DNA of 28,679 nt from an uncultured delta proteobacterium (lineage in GTDB: Bacteria > Desulfobacterota > Binatia > Bin18), in NCBI GenBank assembly GCA_963733195.1, contig CAVTCR010000034.1, forward strand, positions 1-28,679. The letters run 5' to 3'. A program made the position numbers and the translations under genes. Every line of letters starts with the position of its first letter. The stretch's first letter is position 1. Positions 1,750 to 8,643 of the stretch are shown here, piece after piece. The notes under the pieces were generated by a model. It saw nothing but the letters and a program-made list of their open reading frames with translations. It was not told the origin of the DNA and ran no database searches.

Positions 1750-1842
1750 GCCGAAACGCGCCCGCGCACCGCGAGCCGCCACAACGCGGCCTTTCAGGTT
1801 TAGCAGAACCGCAACGCGGGCAGCGATGCGGTGGCGCGGCTG
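1750..1842 (-). other. attC site of the ~100-bp family, interrupted by IS copy 1; its R'' box lies at 3480-3486
   Basis: CGCGCACCGCGAGC...GCGATGCGGTGGCGCGGCTG joined to GTTAGGC rebuilds the same end as the intact site at 8544-8643. The R' end is slightly degenerate (CCGAAAC). Confidence 0.85.
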
Positions 1843-1926
1843 ATACTCATCCAGGCCTCCTGGGCTGCGAGTGGCAGCGGTAGGATGGCTGTAGCCACAC
1901 AATCCACTCTACCGGAGGACACCTGG

Positions 1927-2971
1927 ATGAATTTTTACACACAACAACATAAACATTATTGTGGGATCGATCTACATGCGCGGGCGATGTACGTCTGTAT
2001 TCTCGATCAGCACGGCACGAAACTCGTCCACAAAAATCTGCCGACGACGCCGGAGGCATTTTTACGTCTCATTGCTCCCTATCGAGAGGATCTGGTCGTC
2101 GGCGTCGAATGTATGTTCACGTGGTATTGGCTGGCGGACCTCTGTCAGTAAGGAAGGGATTGCCTTTGTCCTGGGCCATGCGCTCTATATGAAGGCGATT
2201 CATGGGGGCAAAGCCAAGAACGATAAAATTGATGCGCAGAAGATTGCGGTCTTATTGCGTGGCGGGATGTTGCCCCAAGCGTATGTCTATCCTGCAGAGA
2301 TGCGGGCGACCCGCGACTTACTCCGGCGTCGCTGTCATCTGGCCCGCAAGCGCGCCGAACTGTTAGCCCACATTCACAATACCAAGAGTCAGTACAATCT
2401 GCCGGAGATTGGCAAACGGCTGGCGAACAAAGCGAACCGCGAAGATGTCGCCGACCATTTTCCCGATCCCAGTGTCCGCAAGGCGATCGAAGTCGATGTG
2501 TCGCTCATCGATCACTACGATCAATTGTTGGGCGAGGTGGAACTCTATCTCACGCGCAGTGCCAAAACCGATGATGTCCAGACGTTCGCCCGGTTGCAAT
2601 CGGTTCCCGGGATTGGGCAGATTCTGGCGTTGGTCATTCTCTATGAGATTCAGGACATTCGCGCGCTTTCCGCGCGTGCAAGATTTCGTCTCCTATTGTC
2701 GGCTGGTGAAGTGCGCCAAAGAATCCAACGGCAAACGACTGGGGACTTCAGGCAAAAAGATTGGCAACGTCCATTTACGCTGGGCCTTTGCCGAAGCCGC
2801 GGTCCTCTTTATCCGGCAGAGTCAGCCGGGAAAGAGTATTTTGCGAAACTCGAACACAAACACGGCAAAGCCAAAGCGCTCACCGTGCTCGCCCACAAGT
2901 TGGGCCGGGCCGTGTACTACATGCTCACGCGGGAACACGCGTTTGACCTCAAGCGCTTTGTCACCGCGTAA
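1927..2971 (+). CDS. IS110-family DEDD transposase/recombinase (frameshifts near 2145, 2660 and 2830)
   Basis: YCGIDLH, VGVECMF, KNDKIDA (RuvC-like DEDD domain), SVPGIG and KESNGK...GNVHLRWAFAEAA (C-terminal Tnp domain), spread over three frames. Confidence 0.92.
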
Positions 2972-3450
2972 CCGCTGAGGGGAGAGACCGAGCCCGCCGT
3001 CTAACTGGCCCACCAGAGGGGAGAGCCTGCTCGATGTTTCTTCCTTATATACAGCACGGACTGTGCAGGAACATCTGGACGACAAGCCCCGGAGCCGCAC
3101 GGCTTGATTGGACTGTCTCTCCCGCTCATCTTCTTGGTGATCCGTCACCAAGTGTCCCGTGGCTGCCCCTCCCCCGAGTCTGGCACTAACTAGGAGTGTC
3201 TGCGGACACAACCCGCTGTATTGAGAAGACCGGGATGAGGGCACAGAAGAGTTTCTCGGGCGTGGGGTCTGCGGACGCCACTGTTTCTCCGTGGAACATA
3301 GTCCACGAGAACATCGACCCTCTATAGGTGTTTGGTGCAGCTCACGGGCTGTGACCAGCAACCGAAATGAAGTCAGCCGCAATCGCTTGGCGAAGATGAT
3401 TCACCATATGTTCCTCGGACGGCCACCCCGCCCCCGCGATGCATCCGTCT
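2972..3450 (+). ncRNA. Candidate bridge/seek RNA region of IS copy 1
   Basis: Long non-coding region 3' of the transposase, conserved in copy 2, with hairpins showing compensatory changes. IS1111-type elements encode their guide RNA at this position. Boundaries are unknown. Confidence 0.6.
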
Positions 3451-3456
3451 GCCCGC

Positions 3457-3479
3457 TTGACATCGTCGGCCTGATAGGG
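3457..3479 (+). promoter_or_regulatory. -35 half (TTGACA) of the circle-junction promoter; -10 (GATACT) forms on joining to the IS left end
   Basis: TTGACA at 3457-3462. Circularisation gives TTGACA-N16/17-GATACT. The same geometry is present in copy 2 (7536-7541). Confidence 0.75.
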
Positions 3480-3480
3480 G

Positions 3481-3720
3481 TTAGGCAACGCCTAACATCT
3501 TGTTCGCATAGTCTTTGCCGTACGTGGCAGGAGGCAGGACTTTGTGGCCTTTCTTGTACAAGTCAATCGTCTCGTCCACAATCGCACATAACTCGGCAAA
3601 CACTGCTTGCTCGTCGTCTCCGTGACAGCCTCCATACAGTAGCCCCGGACAACTCCCAACAAAACATTGATCTTCTTCCGACCATTCGACAATCTTGACG
3701 TACCGCGCACTCGCTTTCAT
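3481..3720 (-). CDS. hicB: HicB-family antitoxin
   Basis: RYVKIVEWSEEDQCFVGSCPGL..GGCHGDD pattern, AGGAG RBS, stop codon in the R'' box GCCTAAC, and ATGA overlap with a HicA-like remnant. Confidence 0.75.
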   Translation of the reverse strand: MKASARYVKIVEWSEEDQCFVGSCPGLLYGGCHGDDEQAVFAELCAIVDETIDLYKKGHKVLPPATYGKDYANKMLGVA

Positions 3721-3817
3721 CGTTGGGACTCCTCAATTGCCGCTTGTGCGGCTTTCTCTTGATAATGCTTGACGTCTTTCCCAAGTTTCCCAGAGATCGT
3801 GATGGGTTTGGTACCTT
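3717..3817 (-). pseudogene. 3' half of a HicA-like toxin gene
   Basis: My translation ...GTKPITISGKLGKDVKHYQEKAAQAAIEESQR* resembles HicA C-termini and is coupled to hicB. The 5' half is absent. Confidence 0.6.
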
Positions 3818-3970
3818 GTCTTTTGCGAGCTCGCAGCGGCCAAACACCTGAGAAAAATCGTAGGAGAGAGGACCTTTTGCCTCGAACACCGCACTTTCAA
3901 TGCAGCCAATCAACCTATCGAGTTCACCGGCTTCTATGAGGGCCTCTATGTCTCGGAACTCATCTTTCAT
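3818..3970 (-). pseudogene. N-terminal fragment of an AlbA_2/Schlafen-like domain protein
   Basis: MKDEFRDIEALIEAGE...IESAVFEAKG..Y.....ELAKD stops just before the expected (V/I)xAxAN motif. Confidence 0.55.
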
Positions 3971-4027
3971 ACAGTCAGCAGGCTGGACTAAGGCTCTGAA
4001 GGCGTCAAGACTTGACACCGAAGAGCG

Positions 4028-4112
4028 GGCTAACGCCCGGTGGCTGGCGGCCACACACGCTCGGACAGGGCACGTCACTTCCCCGCCAGTCCACTCCAGC
4101 CGCGTGTTAGCC
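4028..4112 (-). other. attC site (85 bp, different sequence type)
   Basis: GGCTAAC...GTTAGCC perfectly complementary ends with an imperfect internal palindrome. The upstream ORF stop lies within R''. Confidence 0.85.
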
Positions 4113-4427
4113 GGTCAGCTCCCACACCTCACCAGGCCGCAGCTTTTCTAAGGCTGTGCGAAGTGCCGCGACCAAAGGAAGAAGATCGGCCAAACGGTTT
4201 GTTTTCGCCCGAAGTACAACAATCCCGAAAAGTCGGTTCTGCACACGTTGTTGTTTCGGGAGGTTCTTATCGACCGTCACCAAGGCATCAAACAACCCTG
4301 CCATTGCGTTAAGCAGGGGGCCGTCATCTAGGTCTGCCCAGACCATCTCGGGAACAGTGCGCACTTCATGTCCAGGCAGCTCATTAGCGAGCCATCGCGG
4401 CACACAGGTATCGAGCAGGATACGCAT
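4107..4427 (-). CDS. DUF5615-family PIN-like toxin
   Basis: MRILLDTCVP...GHEVRTV...DDGPLL...LVTVDKNL, downstream of a DUF433 gene. Confidence 0.8.
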   Translation of the reverse strand: MRILLDTCVPRWLANELPGHEVRTVPEMVWADLDDGPLLNAMAGLFDALVTVDKNLPKQQRVQNRLFGIVVLRAKTNRLADLLPLVAALRTALEKLRPGEVWELTG

Positions 4428-4445
4428 GTCCGGAGCCGCCCCGGG

Positions 4446-4670
4446 TTACGCCGCGACCGCTTTAGTCAGAAGAGCTGACTTGGCCAACTCCAGAACGGCG
4501 ATGGCGTGTTCACGGGAGACGCTTGGAAAGTCCTTCAGGAACTCGTCTAGGGTATCCCCGGCCTCCAGATAATCGATGAGGGTCTGGACAGGAACTCTCG
4601 TACCAGCAAAGACAGGGGTGCCGCTTAGTCGATATGGAGATGTGGTGATCAAGGGATCGGGGATATGCAT
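4446..4670 (-). CDS. DUF433-family antitoxin
   Basis: SGTPVFAGTRVPVQTLIDYLEAGDTLDEFLKDFPSV signature. Confidence 0.9.
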   Translation of the reverse strand: MHIPDPLITTSPYRLSGTPVFAGTRVPVQTLIDYLEAGDTLDEFLKDFPSVSREHAIAVLELAKSALLTKAVAA

Positions 4671-4728
4671 CCTACTCTCTGTTCGTGGTAGCTGACCTGA
4701 CCCTAACCTAGCACGCTTGCATCTGGCT

Positions 4729-4828
4729 GGCTAACGCTCCCCGCGTACCGCGAGCTGCCCAGACGCGCCCTTTCACATTTATTCCAAACCGCAACCGGGC
4801 AGCGATGCGGTGGCGCGACTAGTTAGCC
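4729..4828 (-). other. attC site (100 bp, intact family member)
   Basis: GGCTAAC...CGCGTACCGCGAGCTGCCC...GGGCAGCGATGCGGTGGCGCGACTAGTTAGCC, immediately after the brnA stop. Confidence 0.9.
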
Positions 4829-4829
4829 C

Positions 4830-5081
4830 TTAACCTTGCATGGCAAGTTCCTCGCGGACAATGCGCCGCACGATTTCAGGAGTCAACGGCTGTTCTCTCC
4901 GTCCGACAGAGGTACTCAACACCTCGTTGATGAGCGTCTGATAACCACGGCCAGTTTTCTCTGAGAGAGCACGAAAATGCTCAAGCACCTCATTATCAAG
5001 ATACAACGTGATGCGGGTTTTGCCGGTCATGGGCAACACTGCGCCACGTTTGGCTTTGGAAAAGTCATACTCCTTTTTCAT
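4830..5081 (-). CDS. brnA: BrnA-family antitoxin
   Basis: MKKEYDFSKAKRG...KTRITLYLDNEVLEHFR...GYQTLINEVL. Confidence 0.88.
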   Translation of the reverse strand: MKKEYDFSKAKRGAVLPMTGKTRITLYLDNEVLEHFRALSEKTGRGYQTLINEVLSTSVGRREQPLTPEIVRRIVREELAMQG

Positions 5082-5337
5082 AAGCTCGTCTCTCTTTGGG
5101 TTCTGCGTGTCGCACCGAAATCAACCGAGTGTCCTCGCCTTCATACGTGTAGACGACGACCATTAACCGACCAAACGTGTTCATACCGATCGAAACAAAT
5201 CGCTGTTCGCCTCGTGCTGAGTCGTCCTCAATCGTGAGAGCTAAGGGGTCATTGAGGACGCCATCACCCTCGGCGAGCGACACGCCATGTTTCCGTATGT
5301 TAATAGCGTTCTTCCTGGGATCGAAGTTGCTCTCCAC
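5065..5337 (-). CDS. brnT: BrnT-family ribonuclease toxin
   Basis: FDPRKNAINIRKHGVSL...GEQRFVSIG...VVVYT...RLISVR; overlaps brnA. Confidence 0.9.
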   Translation of the reverse strand: MESNFDPRKNAINIRKHGVSLAEGDGVLNDPLALTIEDDSARGEQRFVSIGMNTFGRLMVVVYTYEGEDTRLISVRHAEPKERRAYEKGV

Positions 5338-5343
5338 CGGGTC

Positions 5344-5371
5344 AGTGTATGTATATTATACATATTTGCAA
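5344..5371 (-). promoter_or_regulatory. brnTA cassette promoter with palindromic operator
   Basis: Minus strand TTGCAA-N16-TACACT, 6 nt before the GTG start. The spacer holds a perfect inverted repeat ATGTATA-N-TATACAT (5349-5363). Confidence 0.65.
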
Positions 5372-5397
5372 TCATGGTGTGTGTCTCACTGATAAGA

Positions 5398-5464
5398 GAG
5401 CTATTGTCCGTGTTGAGCGGCGCACCGCTTTTTAGCATGCCCGTTCTCGAACGCTCTGTTAGGC
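5398..5464 (-). other. attC site with a degenerate R' box
   Basis: R'' GCCTAAC (5458-5464) overlaps a stop codon; arms TTGAGCGG/CCGTTCTCGAA. The far end reads GCTATTG instead of GCTAACG. Confidence 0.65.
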
Positions 5465-5824
5465 CTTTCTGTAGATCTTGAGTGCGCGGAGCACATCCAA
5501 AGACTTGGATAGCTTTTTAAGCGATTTTGCCGCGGCAGTGGATTGCTTCAAGTATCCTTCAGCGTTCTGCTTCAGTTCCCCAAGGGCATCTCTCAGCTCC
5601 ACCAGTTCTTCGACGAACTCTTCGTTTAATTCGGCAGTAAGGAACTGGTGGTCACACGACTGGCAGACGCGACCGCGTCTAAACCAGTTGATATCTTTGT
5701 GATCAGTGCGGTGCCAACGTTGCCCAGACCGTCCCGCAATAGAATGAGGATTAATGCCCTTGCATACAGTAATTGAGTGGCATTCCGGACACCAGACCTG
5801 GGTTCCTCCTTATTGAACGCGCAT
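5459..5824 (-). CDS. Zinc-ribbon plus coiled-coil hypothetical cassette protein (absent from the ORF track; TAA at codon 5)
   Basis: AGGAG RBS, then ATG CGC GTT CAA TAA followed by an open frame GGTQVWCPECHS...WFRRGRVCQSCDHQFLTAE...IYRKA* ending in R''. Confidence 0.65.
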
Positions 5825-5839
5825 GATGTCTCCTTGAAG

Positions 5840-5930
5840 GGCTAACGGCCCGCGCACCGCGAGCTGCCTACTTGCGGTCTTGCAGATTTAGCAGAATCGC
5901 AACGTGGCAGCGATGCGGTGGCACGGCGTG
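5840..5930 (-). other. attC site of the ~100-bp family, interrupted by IS copy 2; its R'' box lies at 7559-7565
   Basis: GGCTAAC-GGCC-CGCGCACCGCGAGCTGCC...GGCAGCGATGCGGTGGCACGGCGTG, then the IS, then GTTAGAC. Confidence 0.88.
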
Positions 5931-6014
5931 ATACTCCTCCAGGCCTCCTGTGCCGCGAGTGGCAGCGGTAGGAGGGCTGTACACAAATATCCACGCCACA
6001 AGGAGGAGACCTGG

Positions 6015-7091
6015 ATGAATTTTTACACGCAACAACATAAACATTCTTGTGGCATCGATCTACCTGCGCGGGCGATGTATGTCTGTATTCTCGATCAACA
6101 GGGTACGAAACTCGTCCATAAAAATTTGCCGACGACTCCTGAAGCGTTTTTGCGGGTGATTGCTCCATATAGAGAGGATCTCGTCGTCGGCGTCGAATGT
6201 ATGTTTACCTGGTATTGGCTCGCGGACCTCTGTAGTAAGGAAGGAATTGCCTTTGTCCTGGGACATGCGCTTTATATGAAGGCGATTCATGGCGGCAAAG
6301 CGAAGAACGATAAAATTGATGCCCAGAAGATTGCGGTCTTGTTACGGGGTGGAATGATGCCCCAAGCGTACGTTTATCCCGTCGAGATGCGGGCCACCCG
6401 CGATTTACTCCGCCGGCGCTGTCATCTCGCGCGGAAGCGGGCCGAACTCTTAGCGCACATCCATAATACGAATAGTCAGTACAACCTGCCCGAGATTGGG
6501 AAGCGGCTGGCGAACAAAGCCAACCGTGACGATGTCGCCGACCATTGCCCCGATCCCAGTGTCCGCAAGACCATTGAAGTCGAGGTGTCGCTCATCGATC
6601 ACTATGATGAACTCTTGGGCGAGGTCGAACTCTATCTCACGCGCAGTGCCAAAACGCACGATGTCCAGACATTCGCCCGTTTACAATCGGTCCCTGGGAT
6701 CGGGCAGATTCTGGCGTTGGTCCTGCTCTCTGAGATTCAGGACATCGCCCGGTTTCCCCGGGTGCAAGATTTCGTCTCCTATTGTCGGCTGGTGAAGAGT
6801 GCCAAAGAGTCAGGCGGCAAACGGCTAGGAACGTCCGGCAAAAAGATCGGCACCGTCCATCTCCGCTGGGCGTTTGCCGCAGCCGCCGTGCTCTTCATCC
6901 GCCAGAGTCAGCCGGGGAAAGCGTATTTTGCCACACTCGAACACCAACACGGCAAAGCCAAGGCCCTAACCGTGCTTGCTCATAAGTTGGGCCGGGCCGT
7001 GTATTACCTGCTCACGCGGGAACACGCGTTTGATCTTCAGCGCTTTGTCACCGCGTACCCGCTGAGGAGAGAGACCGAGCCCACCGTCTAA
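6015..7091 (+). CDS. IS110-family DEDD transposase/recombinase
   Basis: Uninterrupted frame from MNFYTQQHKH with AGGAGG RBS and DEDD motifs. The TAA of copy 1 is TAC here, extending the protein by 11 residues. Confidence 0.95.
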   Translation: MNFYTQQHKHSCGIDLPARAMYVCILDQQGTKLVHKNLPTTPEAFLRVIAPYREDLVVGVECMFTWYWLADLCSKEGIAFVLGHALYMKAIHGGKAKNDKIDAQKIAVLLRGGMMPQAYVYPVEMRATRDLLRRRCHLARKRAELLAHIHNTNSQYNLPEIGKRLANKANRDDVADHCPDPSVRKTIEVEVSLIDHYDELLGEVELYLTRSAKTHDVQTFARLQSVPGIGQILALVLLSEIQDIARFPRVQDFVSYCRLVKSAKESGGKRLGTSGKKIGTVHLRWAFAAAAVLFIRQSQPGKAYFATLEHQHGKAKALTVLAHKLGRAVYYLLTREHAFDLQRFVTAYPLRRETEPTV

Positions 7092-7530
7092 CGGGCGCAT
7101 GTAGGGCTGAGCCTTTTACGCACTCCTTCCTTATATACAGCTCCGACTGTGAGGGGGTCGCTGGACGACACGCCCGAAGCCGCACGTGTTGATGGGACTG
7201 TCTCTCTCGCTCATCTCCTTGGTGATCCGTCCCCAAGTGCATAGTGGCTGCTCCTCCGCCGAGTCTGAAACTAACTAGGAGTGTCTCACGACACAATCCG
7301 CTACTATTGAGAAGACCGGGACGAGGGCACACAAGAGTTTCTCGGGCGTGGCCTCTGCGGAGGCTACTATTCTCCACACAACGTGAGAGAATATCGACCC
7401 TCCATAGGTGTTTGGTGCAGCAACAGGCTGTGACCAGCAACGGAAATCAAGTCGGCCACAAACGCTTAGGAAAGATGACTCATCAAATGTTCTTCGGACG
7501 GTCACCCCGCCCCCGCGATGCATCCGTCTG
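7059..7530 (+). ncRNA. Candidate bridge/seek RNA region of IS copy 2
   Basis: Homologous to 2972-3450; stems are conserved while loops vary. Confidence 0.6.
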
Positions 7531-7566
7531 CCCTCTTGACAATGTCGGCCTGATAGGGGTTAGACC

Positions 7567-8516
7567 TCAAACTCCTTCGAGTACCCGTTTTAATTTTGGA
7601 GAGACATTGTTAAAGGGAGATTCCGTCGCTTAATGTCTTACGAAGCTTCAAATACCCCTGGTTCTCAAGAACGTGCAAGGCATGATCCACTAAGATTTGT
7701 TGGGCTCCGACATTCTCGGTTATAGACACACTGTCTTGTAGGTTCTCGTTGACGATTTTCGCGATAACGTTGGTGAGAAGCTCCTTATAACTTGCGACGT
7801 AGTTATTCACATAGCGGTCAAATCCAAAAAGGGAAACAGTTAGGCTAGGAGGGAGATCCACCGATGACTCCAAGTAATTCGATATAGCCCTCGTGCTCGA
7901 AGCACTTCGAATGAATCTCTCATTCCTGTTCTGATAAACCAAAGGTGGCGGTTTGAGATAAAACCTGGTCTGTGTCGATAAACATCTGACCCTGTTCTAA
8001 TTGCGATCTCACATGCAACCTTCAGGACAAGGTTGTCAACTTTGGCGAGTTGATCGATCGTGATGATACTCGATTTTGACGTAAGCAGGAGAGACATCGA
8101 GAGGCTGTTTTTCTCGGTGCCCGTAGATAGACATTACAATCCTATCGAACTCTTAGCGTCGCATATTGTTCGAGGGTCGTGGATTCGTTCCCATAGTATG
8201 GTTTTCAAACATTCCGGGATGTTGCATTCCTCGAATTACGATCGGAATCAATTTTGTTGCCTGCTCGATTTTCTTGACCATCGCAGCATCGAGTTCTTCA
8301 AACCTAAGGTTTGTTAACCTATTGTGACACGATCCAATTATACGGCGTTCGCCTCTTAAGACCATCCTCTTTAAAAGATCTTACGCACAAGGCTATCAAC
8401 AAGTGGCATTCCCATAGGTTAGTGAAAAGCACGAAATGTTTCTCCCGTCAATGTTTGGAAAAGCTAAGAAAAAGGGTTCTTGTTTCATCGCATGACTCAA
8501 ATACTTTGGGATTCAT
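7567..8516 (-). pseudogene. TIR-domain protein cassette, heavily frameshifted
   Basis: Pieces across frames: MNPKVF.SH, WE, SLVRKIF, EELDAAMVKKIEQATKLIPIVI, IVMSIYGHREK, then a C-terminal region ending ...KLKRVLEGV*. These match the TIR_2 family pattern. Confidence 0.75.
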
Positions 8517-8543: not shown

Positions 8544-8643
8544 ATCTAACGCTCTCGCGCACCGCGAGCGGCCCACTCGCGGCCTTTCAGATTCATTTTC
8601 ATCACGCCACAGGGCCGCGATGCGGTGGCGCGGCTGGTTAGGG
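8544..8643 (-). other. attC site (100 bp, intact; empty IS target)
   Basis: Canonical layout on the minus strand: R'' CCCTAAC, 5 nt, L'' GCGCCACC ... L' GGTGCGC, 6 nt, R' GTTAGAT, with the extra base in L''. Confidence 0.92.

Follow-up and report, generated by a model that had tools for sequence, protein, structure and literature searches.

Two probably inactive copies of an unnamed, probably RNA-guided IS110-superfamily lineage at the R'' edge of integron attC sites in an uncultured Binatia genome

The window analysed here is the entire 28,679-nt contig CAVTCR010000034.1 (28.7 kb) of an uncultured delta proteobacterium of the Binatia (assembly GCA_963733195.1; 6.9 Mb, 87 contigs). It contains four attC recombination sites of about 100 bp, which lie between small minus-strand open reading frames (ORFs), and two insertion sequences (IS) of the IS110 superfamily, copies 1 and 2, each splitting an attC of this type (Table 1). 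Integrons are the principal means by which bacteria capture genes, and a cassette is mobile only if its attC is intact; an attC runs from an R'' box (RYYYAAC) to an R' box (GTTRRRY) with paired L'' and L' boxes between, forms an imperfect hairpin of about 55–140 nt, and occurs in arrays downstream of cassette ORFs. We put at roughly 80% the probability that the two elements are independently inserted, and now probably dead, copies of a large unnamed IS110-superfamily clade that targets the inner edge of the attC R'' box in a fixed orientation.

Table 1. Positions of the two elements, of the parts of copy 2, and of the attC sites in the window
Feature	Position	Strand	Remarks
attC, L''-to-R' part split by copy 1	1752..1842	-	~100-bp repeat family D6/D8/D9; ends ...GCGGTGGCGCGGCTG
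IS copy 1, decayed	1843..3479	+	three 1-nt indels in the transposase frame; in-frame TAA
R'' box of the attC split by copy 1	3480..3486	-	plus strand GTTAGGC; read with the cassettes, GCCTAAC
Uninterrupted attC of the ~100-bp family	4734..4828	-	repeat families D6, D8, D9; ends ...GCGGTGGCGCGACTAGTTAGCC
attC, L''-to-R' part split by copy 2	5843..5930	-	D6, D8, D9; ends ...GCGGTGGCACGGCGTG
IS copy 2, 1628 bp	5931..7558	+	transposase frame open, unlike in the other five genomic copies
Left sub-terminal inverted repeat, copy 2 (CAGGCC)	5940..5945	+	longer in the family consensus, e.g. CAGGCCTCC
Transposase gene P0001, 358 aa	6015..7091	+	DEDD_Tnp_IS110 and Transposase_20 domains
Block A (CGTCTAAC-GGG)	7085..7095	+	overlaps the stop codon; complement of GTTAGRCG in the right flank; putative guide to the right target
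Block B (GCACGTGTTG-AT-GGGAC)	7182..7198	+	sense of left flank, core and the element's first 2 nt; putative guide to the left target
Structured core of the non-coding region	7244..7458	+	predicted helices enclose a loop with blocks C and D
Block C, second CTAACTRG motif	7271-7279	+	5' side of the loop
Block D (TTGAGAAGACCGG)	from 7306	+	3' side of the loop
Block E (ATAGGT-GTT-TGGTGCAGC)	7404..7421	+	sense of the last 6 nt of the right end, then target GTT; candidate donor guide with handshake to the target
TTGACA	7536..7541	+	-35 half of a candidate circle-junction promoter; GATACT at the junction would complete it
Right sub-terminal inverted repeat, copy 2 (GGCCTG)	7547..7552	+	
R'' box of the attC split by copy 2	7559..7565	-	GTTAGAC on the plus strand
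Intact attC, empty-site reference	8544..8643	-	same ~100-bp family

Both elements are placed between the L'' side and the R'' box of an attC of the ~100-bp family, whose repeats begin with (T/G)CTAAC and finish with GTTAG(G/C)(G/C). Between the sites lie cassette ORFs for a methyltransferase, a DUF433/PIN-like pair and BrnT/BrnA, encoded on the minus strand, which makes the transposase genes antisense to the cassettes. When the flanks of copy 1 are joined, the resulting 3' end is identical to that of the intact attC (...GCGGTGGCGCGGCTGGTTAGG). An earlier interpretation made without database searches (the sequence-only reading) had placed the two elements at these positions, beside the R'' box and antisense to the cassettes, with removal of copy 1 rebuilding the end of an intact site, and reading and aligning the window bears this out. 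The copies share their tips, starting with ATACTC(A/C)TCCAGGCCTCC and finishing with ...TTGACA-N-GGCCTGATAGGG, and are 85.7% identical over 1641 aligned bases (BLASTN and alignment), with differences at 5.0, 3.1 and 28.6% of first, second and third codon positions, respectively. This third-position bias indicates that they diverged as functioning transposase genes and not by decay after a local duplication, and separation under selection on the gene favours separate insertions of separate lineages; together with the different flanking cassettes, it upholds the proposal that the two insertions were independent and site-specific.

Six full-length copies, 78–86% identical to copy 2 by BLASTN, are distributed over five contigs of the genome. 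All six are bordered by the same type of attC half at their left end and by GTTAG-like bases at their right end, a placement far beyond chance, and the four further copies, on four other contigs, adjoin unrelated sequence. The transposase frame is broken in five of the six; in copy 1 the indels fall at columns 368, 880 and 1050 of the alignment with copy 2, and a six-frame search returns pieces with stops. The open frame of copy 2 encodes H17P, F178C, Y239S, N280T and E289A at residues that are invariant in 64 relatives (the check used 62 of the 80 loci described below), and the window copies look like relics. A full-length integron integrase is encoded on another contig (C33:20009-20953; 477 bits to TIGR02249, cut-off 265) and integrase fragments with stops lie at C32:15705-16079, C1:40645-40977, C33:5375-8931 and C41:10690-10938, and the same genome-wide profile search with TIGR02249 found neither an integrase nor a fragment on the window contig. 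Sites of the ~100-bp attC family occur on at least 15 contigs, and the genome seems, from these annotations, to hold many decayed or integrase-less cassette arrays.

Relatives of the copy 2 transposase are numerous and widely dispersed. A collection of genomes yielded 363 confirmed relatives, the best 80 of which (60–91% protein identity, at least 10 phyla) were fetched with their loci, cited below by number (L) where required; the host phyla include Binatia, Acidobacteriota, Nitrospirota, Thermodesulfobacteriota, Myxococcota and Gemmatimonadota. A protein collection contains at least 8000 clusters at E<=1e-20, from metagenomes, and the top clusters are 85–93% identical, reside mostly on 1.3–2-kb contigs and are labelled only 'transposase' or 'IS110 family transposase'. 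Among plasmids searched with tblastn, the nearest relatives are from Candidatus Manganitrophus (66 and 58%), followed by marine Gammaproteobacteria (~52%), with the rest at 33% or less.

Element ends could be placed on the left in 73 of the 80 loci, on the right in 59, and on both sides in 53. The ends are conserved as ATACTC... and ...ATAAGT without terminal inverted repeats; the left tip is ATACT in 55 of 73 elements, and TTGAC is present at -24 or -23 from the right tip in all 59 right ends. Sub-terminal inverted repeats lie 8–9 nt from the left tip (48/59 elements) and 5–6 nt from the right tip. The 6-bp repeat described in the sequence-only reading is indeed what both decayed window copies have, but it is not a trait of the lineage: in the 59 elements the longest perfect repeat is mostly 8–12 bp (range 4–15), with 9–10 bp commonest and at least 7 bp in 45 of them.

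The sequences flanking these elements argue that attC sites are the usual target. The logo of 76 unique left and 59 unique right flanks reads TCSGCTGSA at -17..-9 and TTG at -3..-1, followed on the right by GTTAGGC, which is the reverse complement of the R''-spacer-L'' arm of an attC; G occupies -1 in 75 and T occupies -2 in 70 of the 76 left flanks, and 57–59 of the 59 right flanks begin with GTT. The class 1 attCs of pME-1a, read on the same strand (...GTCGGCTTGAACGAATTGTTAGAC, ...GATTTGTTATGC and ...CACTTGTTAACC), have the same R''/L'' arm. The L'' block is matched at seven or more of nine positions in 57 of the 76 left flanks as compared to 3.2% of 5954 control TTG sites in the same loci, where a shift of +/-1 was allowed and the consensus that was scored came from those same flanks. 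A strict form of the pattern identifies nine more, uninterrupted, sites in the locus flanks, where about 0.3 are expected by chance according to our own arithmetic. Judged by these flanks, the great majority of the family, though not all of it, is associated with attC, and the orientation is the same throughout. The sequence-only reading had staked its claim of attC specificity on the flanks of homologues, and most of those collected resemble attC by the logo and the L'' block; its narrower statement that only the ~100-bp attC family is hit holds for the six copies of this genome and fails for relatives elsewhere, in which the attC box-to-box distance, where measurable, is 47–91 nt.

The insertion point can be resolved further from the spacing of these sites. 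If each element is removed and its flanks are abutted, the spacing between the L'' block and GTT is 8 nt in all 12 occupied sites that fit the strict pattern, as opposed to 7 in six of the nine uninterrupted sites and 7 in the class 1 attC; the element therefore accounts for one base, or for a dinucleotide that is counted once. Most elements have TG...T(G) at their junctions, L059/L061 have CG...C(G) and L095 has GG...G(G), and these variants agree at the left junction, the right junction, and blocks B and E of the non-coding region discussed below. L083, L084 and L085 are copies of one element that differ at the right-junction base, which would be expected if this base can come from the target. 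We conclude that a putative 2-nt core, usually TG, is common to donor and target, such that the target would read ...T-TG-TTAGGC and the crossover, in cassette orientation, would straddle the last C of R'' and the next A. Simple joining of the flanks without a core is ruled out by the spacing and by the four-way covariation of the core, and a GT core predicts a left junction unlike that observed. The proposal that insertion occurs without duplication is literally correct for the window copies, which have TG on the left and GG on the right, but does not extend to the family, where the 2-nt core is found on both sides.

The predicted transposase P0001 belongs to the IS110 superfamily, with matches to PF01548 (E=9e-15) and PF02371 (E=3e-19) and a score of 204 bits against NCBIfam NF033542, 'IS110 family RNA-guided transposase' (cut-off 140). 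Copy 2 has 84 nt upstream of the gene (5931-6014) and 467 nt downstream (7092-7558), as in the IS1111 group, members of which have sub-terminal inverted repeats of 7–17 bp (PMC11208160). Its protein is distant from those of that group: BLASTP of P0001 against ISPa21 gave no match at E<=10, the match to IS4321 is 25% over 166 aa (ISPa21 and IS4321 are 30% identical over their full length), and a search of pME-1a gave 22–23% identity. The motif GL-P----S(t)G of IS1111 transposases (PMC11187229) is replaced at the corresponding position of P0001 by RLVKSAKESG, of which the clade conserves R, L, K, S and G. As annotated, the element is IS1111-type in layout and its predicted transposase is not an IS1111 transposase. 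Residues 189–277 of P0001 also match NF052498, a model of TIGR-Tas RNA-guided endonucleases, weakly (E=9e-8, 32 bits, far below the cut-off), which accords with links between IS110 transposases and other RNA-guided proteins indicated by the titles of published papers.

A quick maximum-likelihood tree was built from 73 of the 80 loci and seven references, leaving out L031, L034, L035, L039, L060, L080 and L081, which have internal stops or short matches. The 76 attC-associated rows form one clade (SH-aLRT 96) whose neighbour is a 33% identical Pseudomonas element, and ISPa21, IS4321 and a third IS1111-type protein are separated from this clade by branches each longer than 2.7 changes per site. 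The suggestion that this is an attC-targeting lineage separate from the known one is thus sustained by the absent BLASTP match to ISPa21, by the distant branch and by an insertion point that lies 6–7 nt away; nesting within the IS1111-attC clade is not seen in this tree, in which ISPa21 is the sole named IS1111-attC member.

The 467-nt region downstream of the transposase gene matches no Rfam family (positions 5800–7700 searched in evalue mode). Alignment of the downstream regions of 55 distinct elements revealed the conserved blocks A to E, three of which are candidate guides. The first six bases of block E equal the last 6 nt of the same element in 40 of 55 cases, with 93% equality at the variable position and none of 5000 permutations reaching the score, and they track the tip in the sublineages ATATGT, ATAGAT, ATAGGC and ATAAGG, with GTT and then TGG after them. 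Block B has the same sense as the left flank, continues with AT, the dinucleotide with which the element starts, and TGG, and agrees with flank positions -10..-4 more than permuted pairings do (2.52 vs 1.78 +/- 0.17; 0/2000 reach it), with striking cases in L070 (TTGAATG), L050 (GGATG) and L059/L061 (TAAAGCG). For block A the signal is weak but significant (3.04 at right-flank positions 4–8 vs 2.71 +/- 0.08 permuted; 1/5000 reach it), and matching changes are seen in L065, L094 and L059. Block D is the reverse complement of the left end in 8 of 49 elements (8-mers, one mismatch), a relationship that fits an Acidobacteriota sublineage and L064/L087. RNAalifold predicts 27 pairs from 27 sequences, 14 of them with compensatory changes (e.g. 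columns 98/171, UA:13 CG:12). We also considered the mutual information between non-coding columns and ends, which is dominated by self-matches and relatedness and was replaced by the anchored permutation tests.

Among the four local copies compared, the non-coding region differs by 7–10% and third codon positions by 20–29%, from which it follows that the non-coding region is constrained. The covariation of the guide blocks with the flanks and the right end supports the view, put forward in the sequence-only reading, that these elements are RNA-guided, and targeting probably operates through an RNA encoded downstream of the transposase. In the local copies block B (GCACGGCTTG and GCACGTGTTG) agrees with the spacer of the ~100-bp attC family of the same genome (GCGCGGCNTG), which would be the reason that only this family is occupied there.

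No sigma-70-like promoter was found in the integrated copy 2. When the right end, a core base and the left end are abutted as in a modelled circle, a promoter is predicted by sigma-70 criteria in 46 of 54 elements, mostly as TTGACA-N18-GATACT, and by the same criteria in 1 of 54 at the integrated left junction. Promoters that form only in the excised circle are known for IS1111-type and related elements. We infer that the element would excise as a circle in which the right end (...ATAAG), the 2-nt core (TG) and the left end (ATACTC...) abut, creating a TTGACA-N17/18-GATACT promoter that would drive the transposase. An RNA from the downstream region, starting around the stop codon, would bind the DEDD transposase and present guides corresponding to the sense of the left flank with the core, to the complement of GTTAGRC, and to the sense of the right tip with the core and the first target bases. 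The element would then enter a plus-strand target of the form ...TCSGCTGSA-N5-T-[TG]-TTAGGC at the TG, recombination at the core placing it between R'' and L''. An attC occupied in this way could presumably no longer form its hairpin, the neighbouring cassettes would be fused in place, and exact excision would restore the site.

Several observations weigh against this picture, in addition to the reuse of the left flanks for the L'' consensus. Nineteen of the 76 left flanks fall below 7/9 in the L'' comparison, eight of them at 5/9 or less, and the flanks of L041, L059/L061, L072, L074 and L084 are unlike attC. Comparisons of the joined sites with shuffled sequences give little separation: an exact complement of R'' and R' boxes is found in 15 of 53 sites (shuffle mean 8.0) and minimum-free-energy pairing of GTT with an upstream AAC in 14 of 53 (shuffle mean 9.05), and the hairpin duplex z-score has a median of -2.5 and is below -2 in 29 of 53, all three being weak tests. 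Because the box-complement and minimum-free-energy tests are too blunt, the attC assignment rests on the flank logo, the L'' block, the class 1 attCs and the array context. Unequal junctions in the window copies, with TG on the left and GG on the right, do not match the common form of the core, and the GG fits local-family targets reading ...GGTTAG; under the core model the sites of copy 1 and of the contig C6 copy come out 1 nt shorter than their paralogues, and the crossover in these two remains uncertain by 1 nt. Block C does not covary with the right flank (3543 of 5000 permutations reach its score), and a guide for the left end was sought but did not appear in any convincing or general form. 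The outgroups in the tree are few and the branches very long, and all six copies in the genome look inactive from their sequences.

The closest precedent is the IS1111-attC group, comprising ISPa21, ISPst6, ISKpn4 and ISPa25 and reportedly described by Tetu and Holmes in 2008 and by Post and Hall in 2009. These elements are inserted near the attC 5' end and antisense to the cassettes (PMC3001079), and the seekRNAs of ISKpn4, ISPst6 and ISPa25, demonstrated for ISKpn4 and ISPst6 to derive from the non-coding stretch downstream of the transposase, are a direct precedent for RNA-guided attC targeting (PMC11187229). The present family resembles them in targeting the 5' (R''/L'') end of the attC, in its antisense orientation, in its sub-terminal repeats and in its long downstream non-coding region. 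It differs in the insertion point, which in the single ISPa21 insertion compared, that of pME-1a between smr and qacEdelta1 as described for an identical integron (PMC7232449), is 6–7 nt further from the R'' box: ISPa21 is flanked by ...GGCTTGAA on the left and (G)AATTGTTAGC on the right, and the present elements by ...GAATTG and (G)TTAGGC. The ends and repeats are also unlike, GGACTCTCCCC in the present family and TAAGGCCYCC in ISPa21, as are the hosts, which are environmental phyla here and Pseudomonas and clinical integrons for the IS1111-attC group.

With the bridge RNA recombinases of IS621 and IS110 (Durrant et al. 2024; PMC11208160) the family shares the DEDD transposase superfamily and a 2-nt core common to donor and target; it is distinguished from IS621 by a predicted RNA encoded downstream of the gene, a TG core in place of CT, long sub-terminal repeats and the lack of an Rfam match. 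The layout of blocks B and E, in which flank or end is followed by the core and two partner bases, is reminiscent of the handshake guides that the IS621 bridge RNA is said to contain. ISEc11 and other IS1111 types have seekRNAs (Siddiquee et al. 2024; PMC11187229) in which the top-strand match is 5' of the bottom-strand match (PMC11187229); the order is reversed in the present family, where block A, the bottom-strand match, precedes block B, the top-strand match. Group IIC-attC introns also home to attC, antisense to cassette transcription (PMC3001079), but are retroelements with a ribozyme and reverse transcriptase, unrelated in sequence and mechanism.

We consider it very improbable that the two elements are ordinary members of the IS1111-attC group with nothing new about them. 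The shared target, the location at the attC 5' end, the orientation, the sub-terminal repeats and the downstream non-coding region would all be accounted for, and that group is itself deep, ISPa25 being 46% identical to ISKpn4 (PMC11187229), with ISPa21 the sole member compared. P0001 nonetheless has no BLASTP match to ISPa21, even though IS4321, which does not target attC, is 30% identical to it; ISPa21 groups with IS4321 far from the present clade, its insertion is 6–7 nt off, and the motif reads RLVKSAKESG. A segmental duplication of an IS-plus-attC block, for which the likeness of the junction sequences and of the attC family might speak, is on the sequence evidence already refuted by the differing cassettes, the attC halves, which are only 64–78% alike between the two insertions, the selection on the transposase, and the presence of four copies on four other contigs. 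A different history, in which the copies arrived already lodged in attC sites, with cassettes or in blocks, by integron recombination or horizontal transfer, seems distinctly unlikely. It is encouraged by the six copies being 14–22% apart in DNA with a strong third-codon bias, meaning that they separated long before decay, by there being no two close copies and no visible recent burst, and by a fit of block B in copies 1 and 2 to the local attC family that is good and not perfect. An attC split by 1.6 kb is, however, not expected to recombine, so that the adjoining cassette would move only in a larger block, and the fit of the local guides to the abundant attC family of the genome points to insertion here or in a close relative; import would in any case alter the history and not the nature of the element.

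The remaining account, unlikely but to be taken seriously, holds that the elements are specific for a short sequence (about TTGTTAGGC and a few bases) wherever it occurs, attC being hit through its copy number with integron and hairpin irrelevant. The guides cover only about 7–10 nt on the left and 7–8 nt on the right, some flanks lack attC features (the five sets of loci named above), and in L059/L061 the guide has changed along with the flank. This is largely the same mechanism viewed from another side, and the L'' block, which lies outside most of the guide footprint and is enriched in the left flanks over control sites to the extent given above, is expected if attCs are the real target pool. 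Our verdict is that the elements probably constitute an RNA-guided, attC-specific insertion sequence lineage independent of the IS1111-attC group. The broader proposition, that this is a very abundant, phylum-spanning, DDE-less (DEDD) RNA-guided lineage that specialised on attC independently of the IS1111-attC group and whose guide RNA reads the R''-spacer arm and tracks the attC family of the host, appears to us somewhat better than an even bet. In the searchable literature, ISfinder aside, the IS1111-attC group is the only set of attC-targeting insertion sequences named; as far as that literature shows, the lineage, its insertion position, its core and its guide layout are new, and an attC-targeting RNA-guided insertion sequence is an already known kind.

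One IS group, studied mostly in Pseudomonas and clinical integrons, was already known to disable attC sites, and the present findings point to a second, unrelated and far more widespread group in soil and sediment phyla. Such elements could help to explain cassette arrays that lack a working integrase or look frozen, and, if the interpretation is true, would be a major and so far unrecognised force freezing cassette arrays in environmental chromosomal integrons. They would also provide a second natural example of guide RNAs converging on the same recombination site, the two guide-RNA systems here having come to target adjacent positions within one structured DNA site, and the bridge and seek RNA systems of interest for genome engineering would gain a divergent recombinase/RNA pair whose core is TG and whose guide code can be read.

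A few of the relatives have individual features of note. In L073 the mapped ends are 1892 nt apart, as compared to 1586–1813 nt elsewhere, and it may have an internal insertion or a misplaced right end. L028, a 52% relative on Vibrio campbellii plasmid NC_022271 (2568-5044), lies in a cluster of insertion sequences, directly beside a true IS1111-type element (38–40% identity to ISPa21 and IS4321) as well as an IS4 element. The 33% relative L027, on Pseudomonas aeruginosa plasmid NZ_CP093017 (~4880-6530), has TTGAC near its right tip and the sub-terminal repeat TAGCCGGCC/GGCCGGCTA, and its flanks, ...AAATCTG on the left and GTCCCCTT on the right, are not attC-like; attC specificity arose inside a wider group that includes L027. 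A survey of Shewanella integrons records five IS110-type elements (ISSde13, IS110-like) in variable regions, none of which is reported to interrupt an attC (PMC9229058), and these insertions may merit a second look given the marine relatives of the present family.

Chromosomal integrons often contain toxin-antitoxin pairs, which may help to keep the array stable. Two cassette segments of the window, at 4107-4670 and 4830-5337 on the minus strand, hold pairs that resemble toxin-antitoxin systems, one combining DUF433 with a weak match to PIN-like/DUF5615 and the other BrnT and BrnA. Shorter attC-like sites of other types lie at 4021-4112 and ~5400-5464, ending ...GCGTGTTAGCC and ...CTCTGTTAGGCC, and are unoccupied despite a TG-TTAG core context; their spacer mismatches block B of the local copies. 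The middle of an attC is usually variable, and we note that the ~100-bp attCs (e.g. 8560-8625) have a well conserved centre, CCTTTCAG-N-TT...AACCGCAAC-GGGC, across many contigs.

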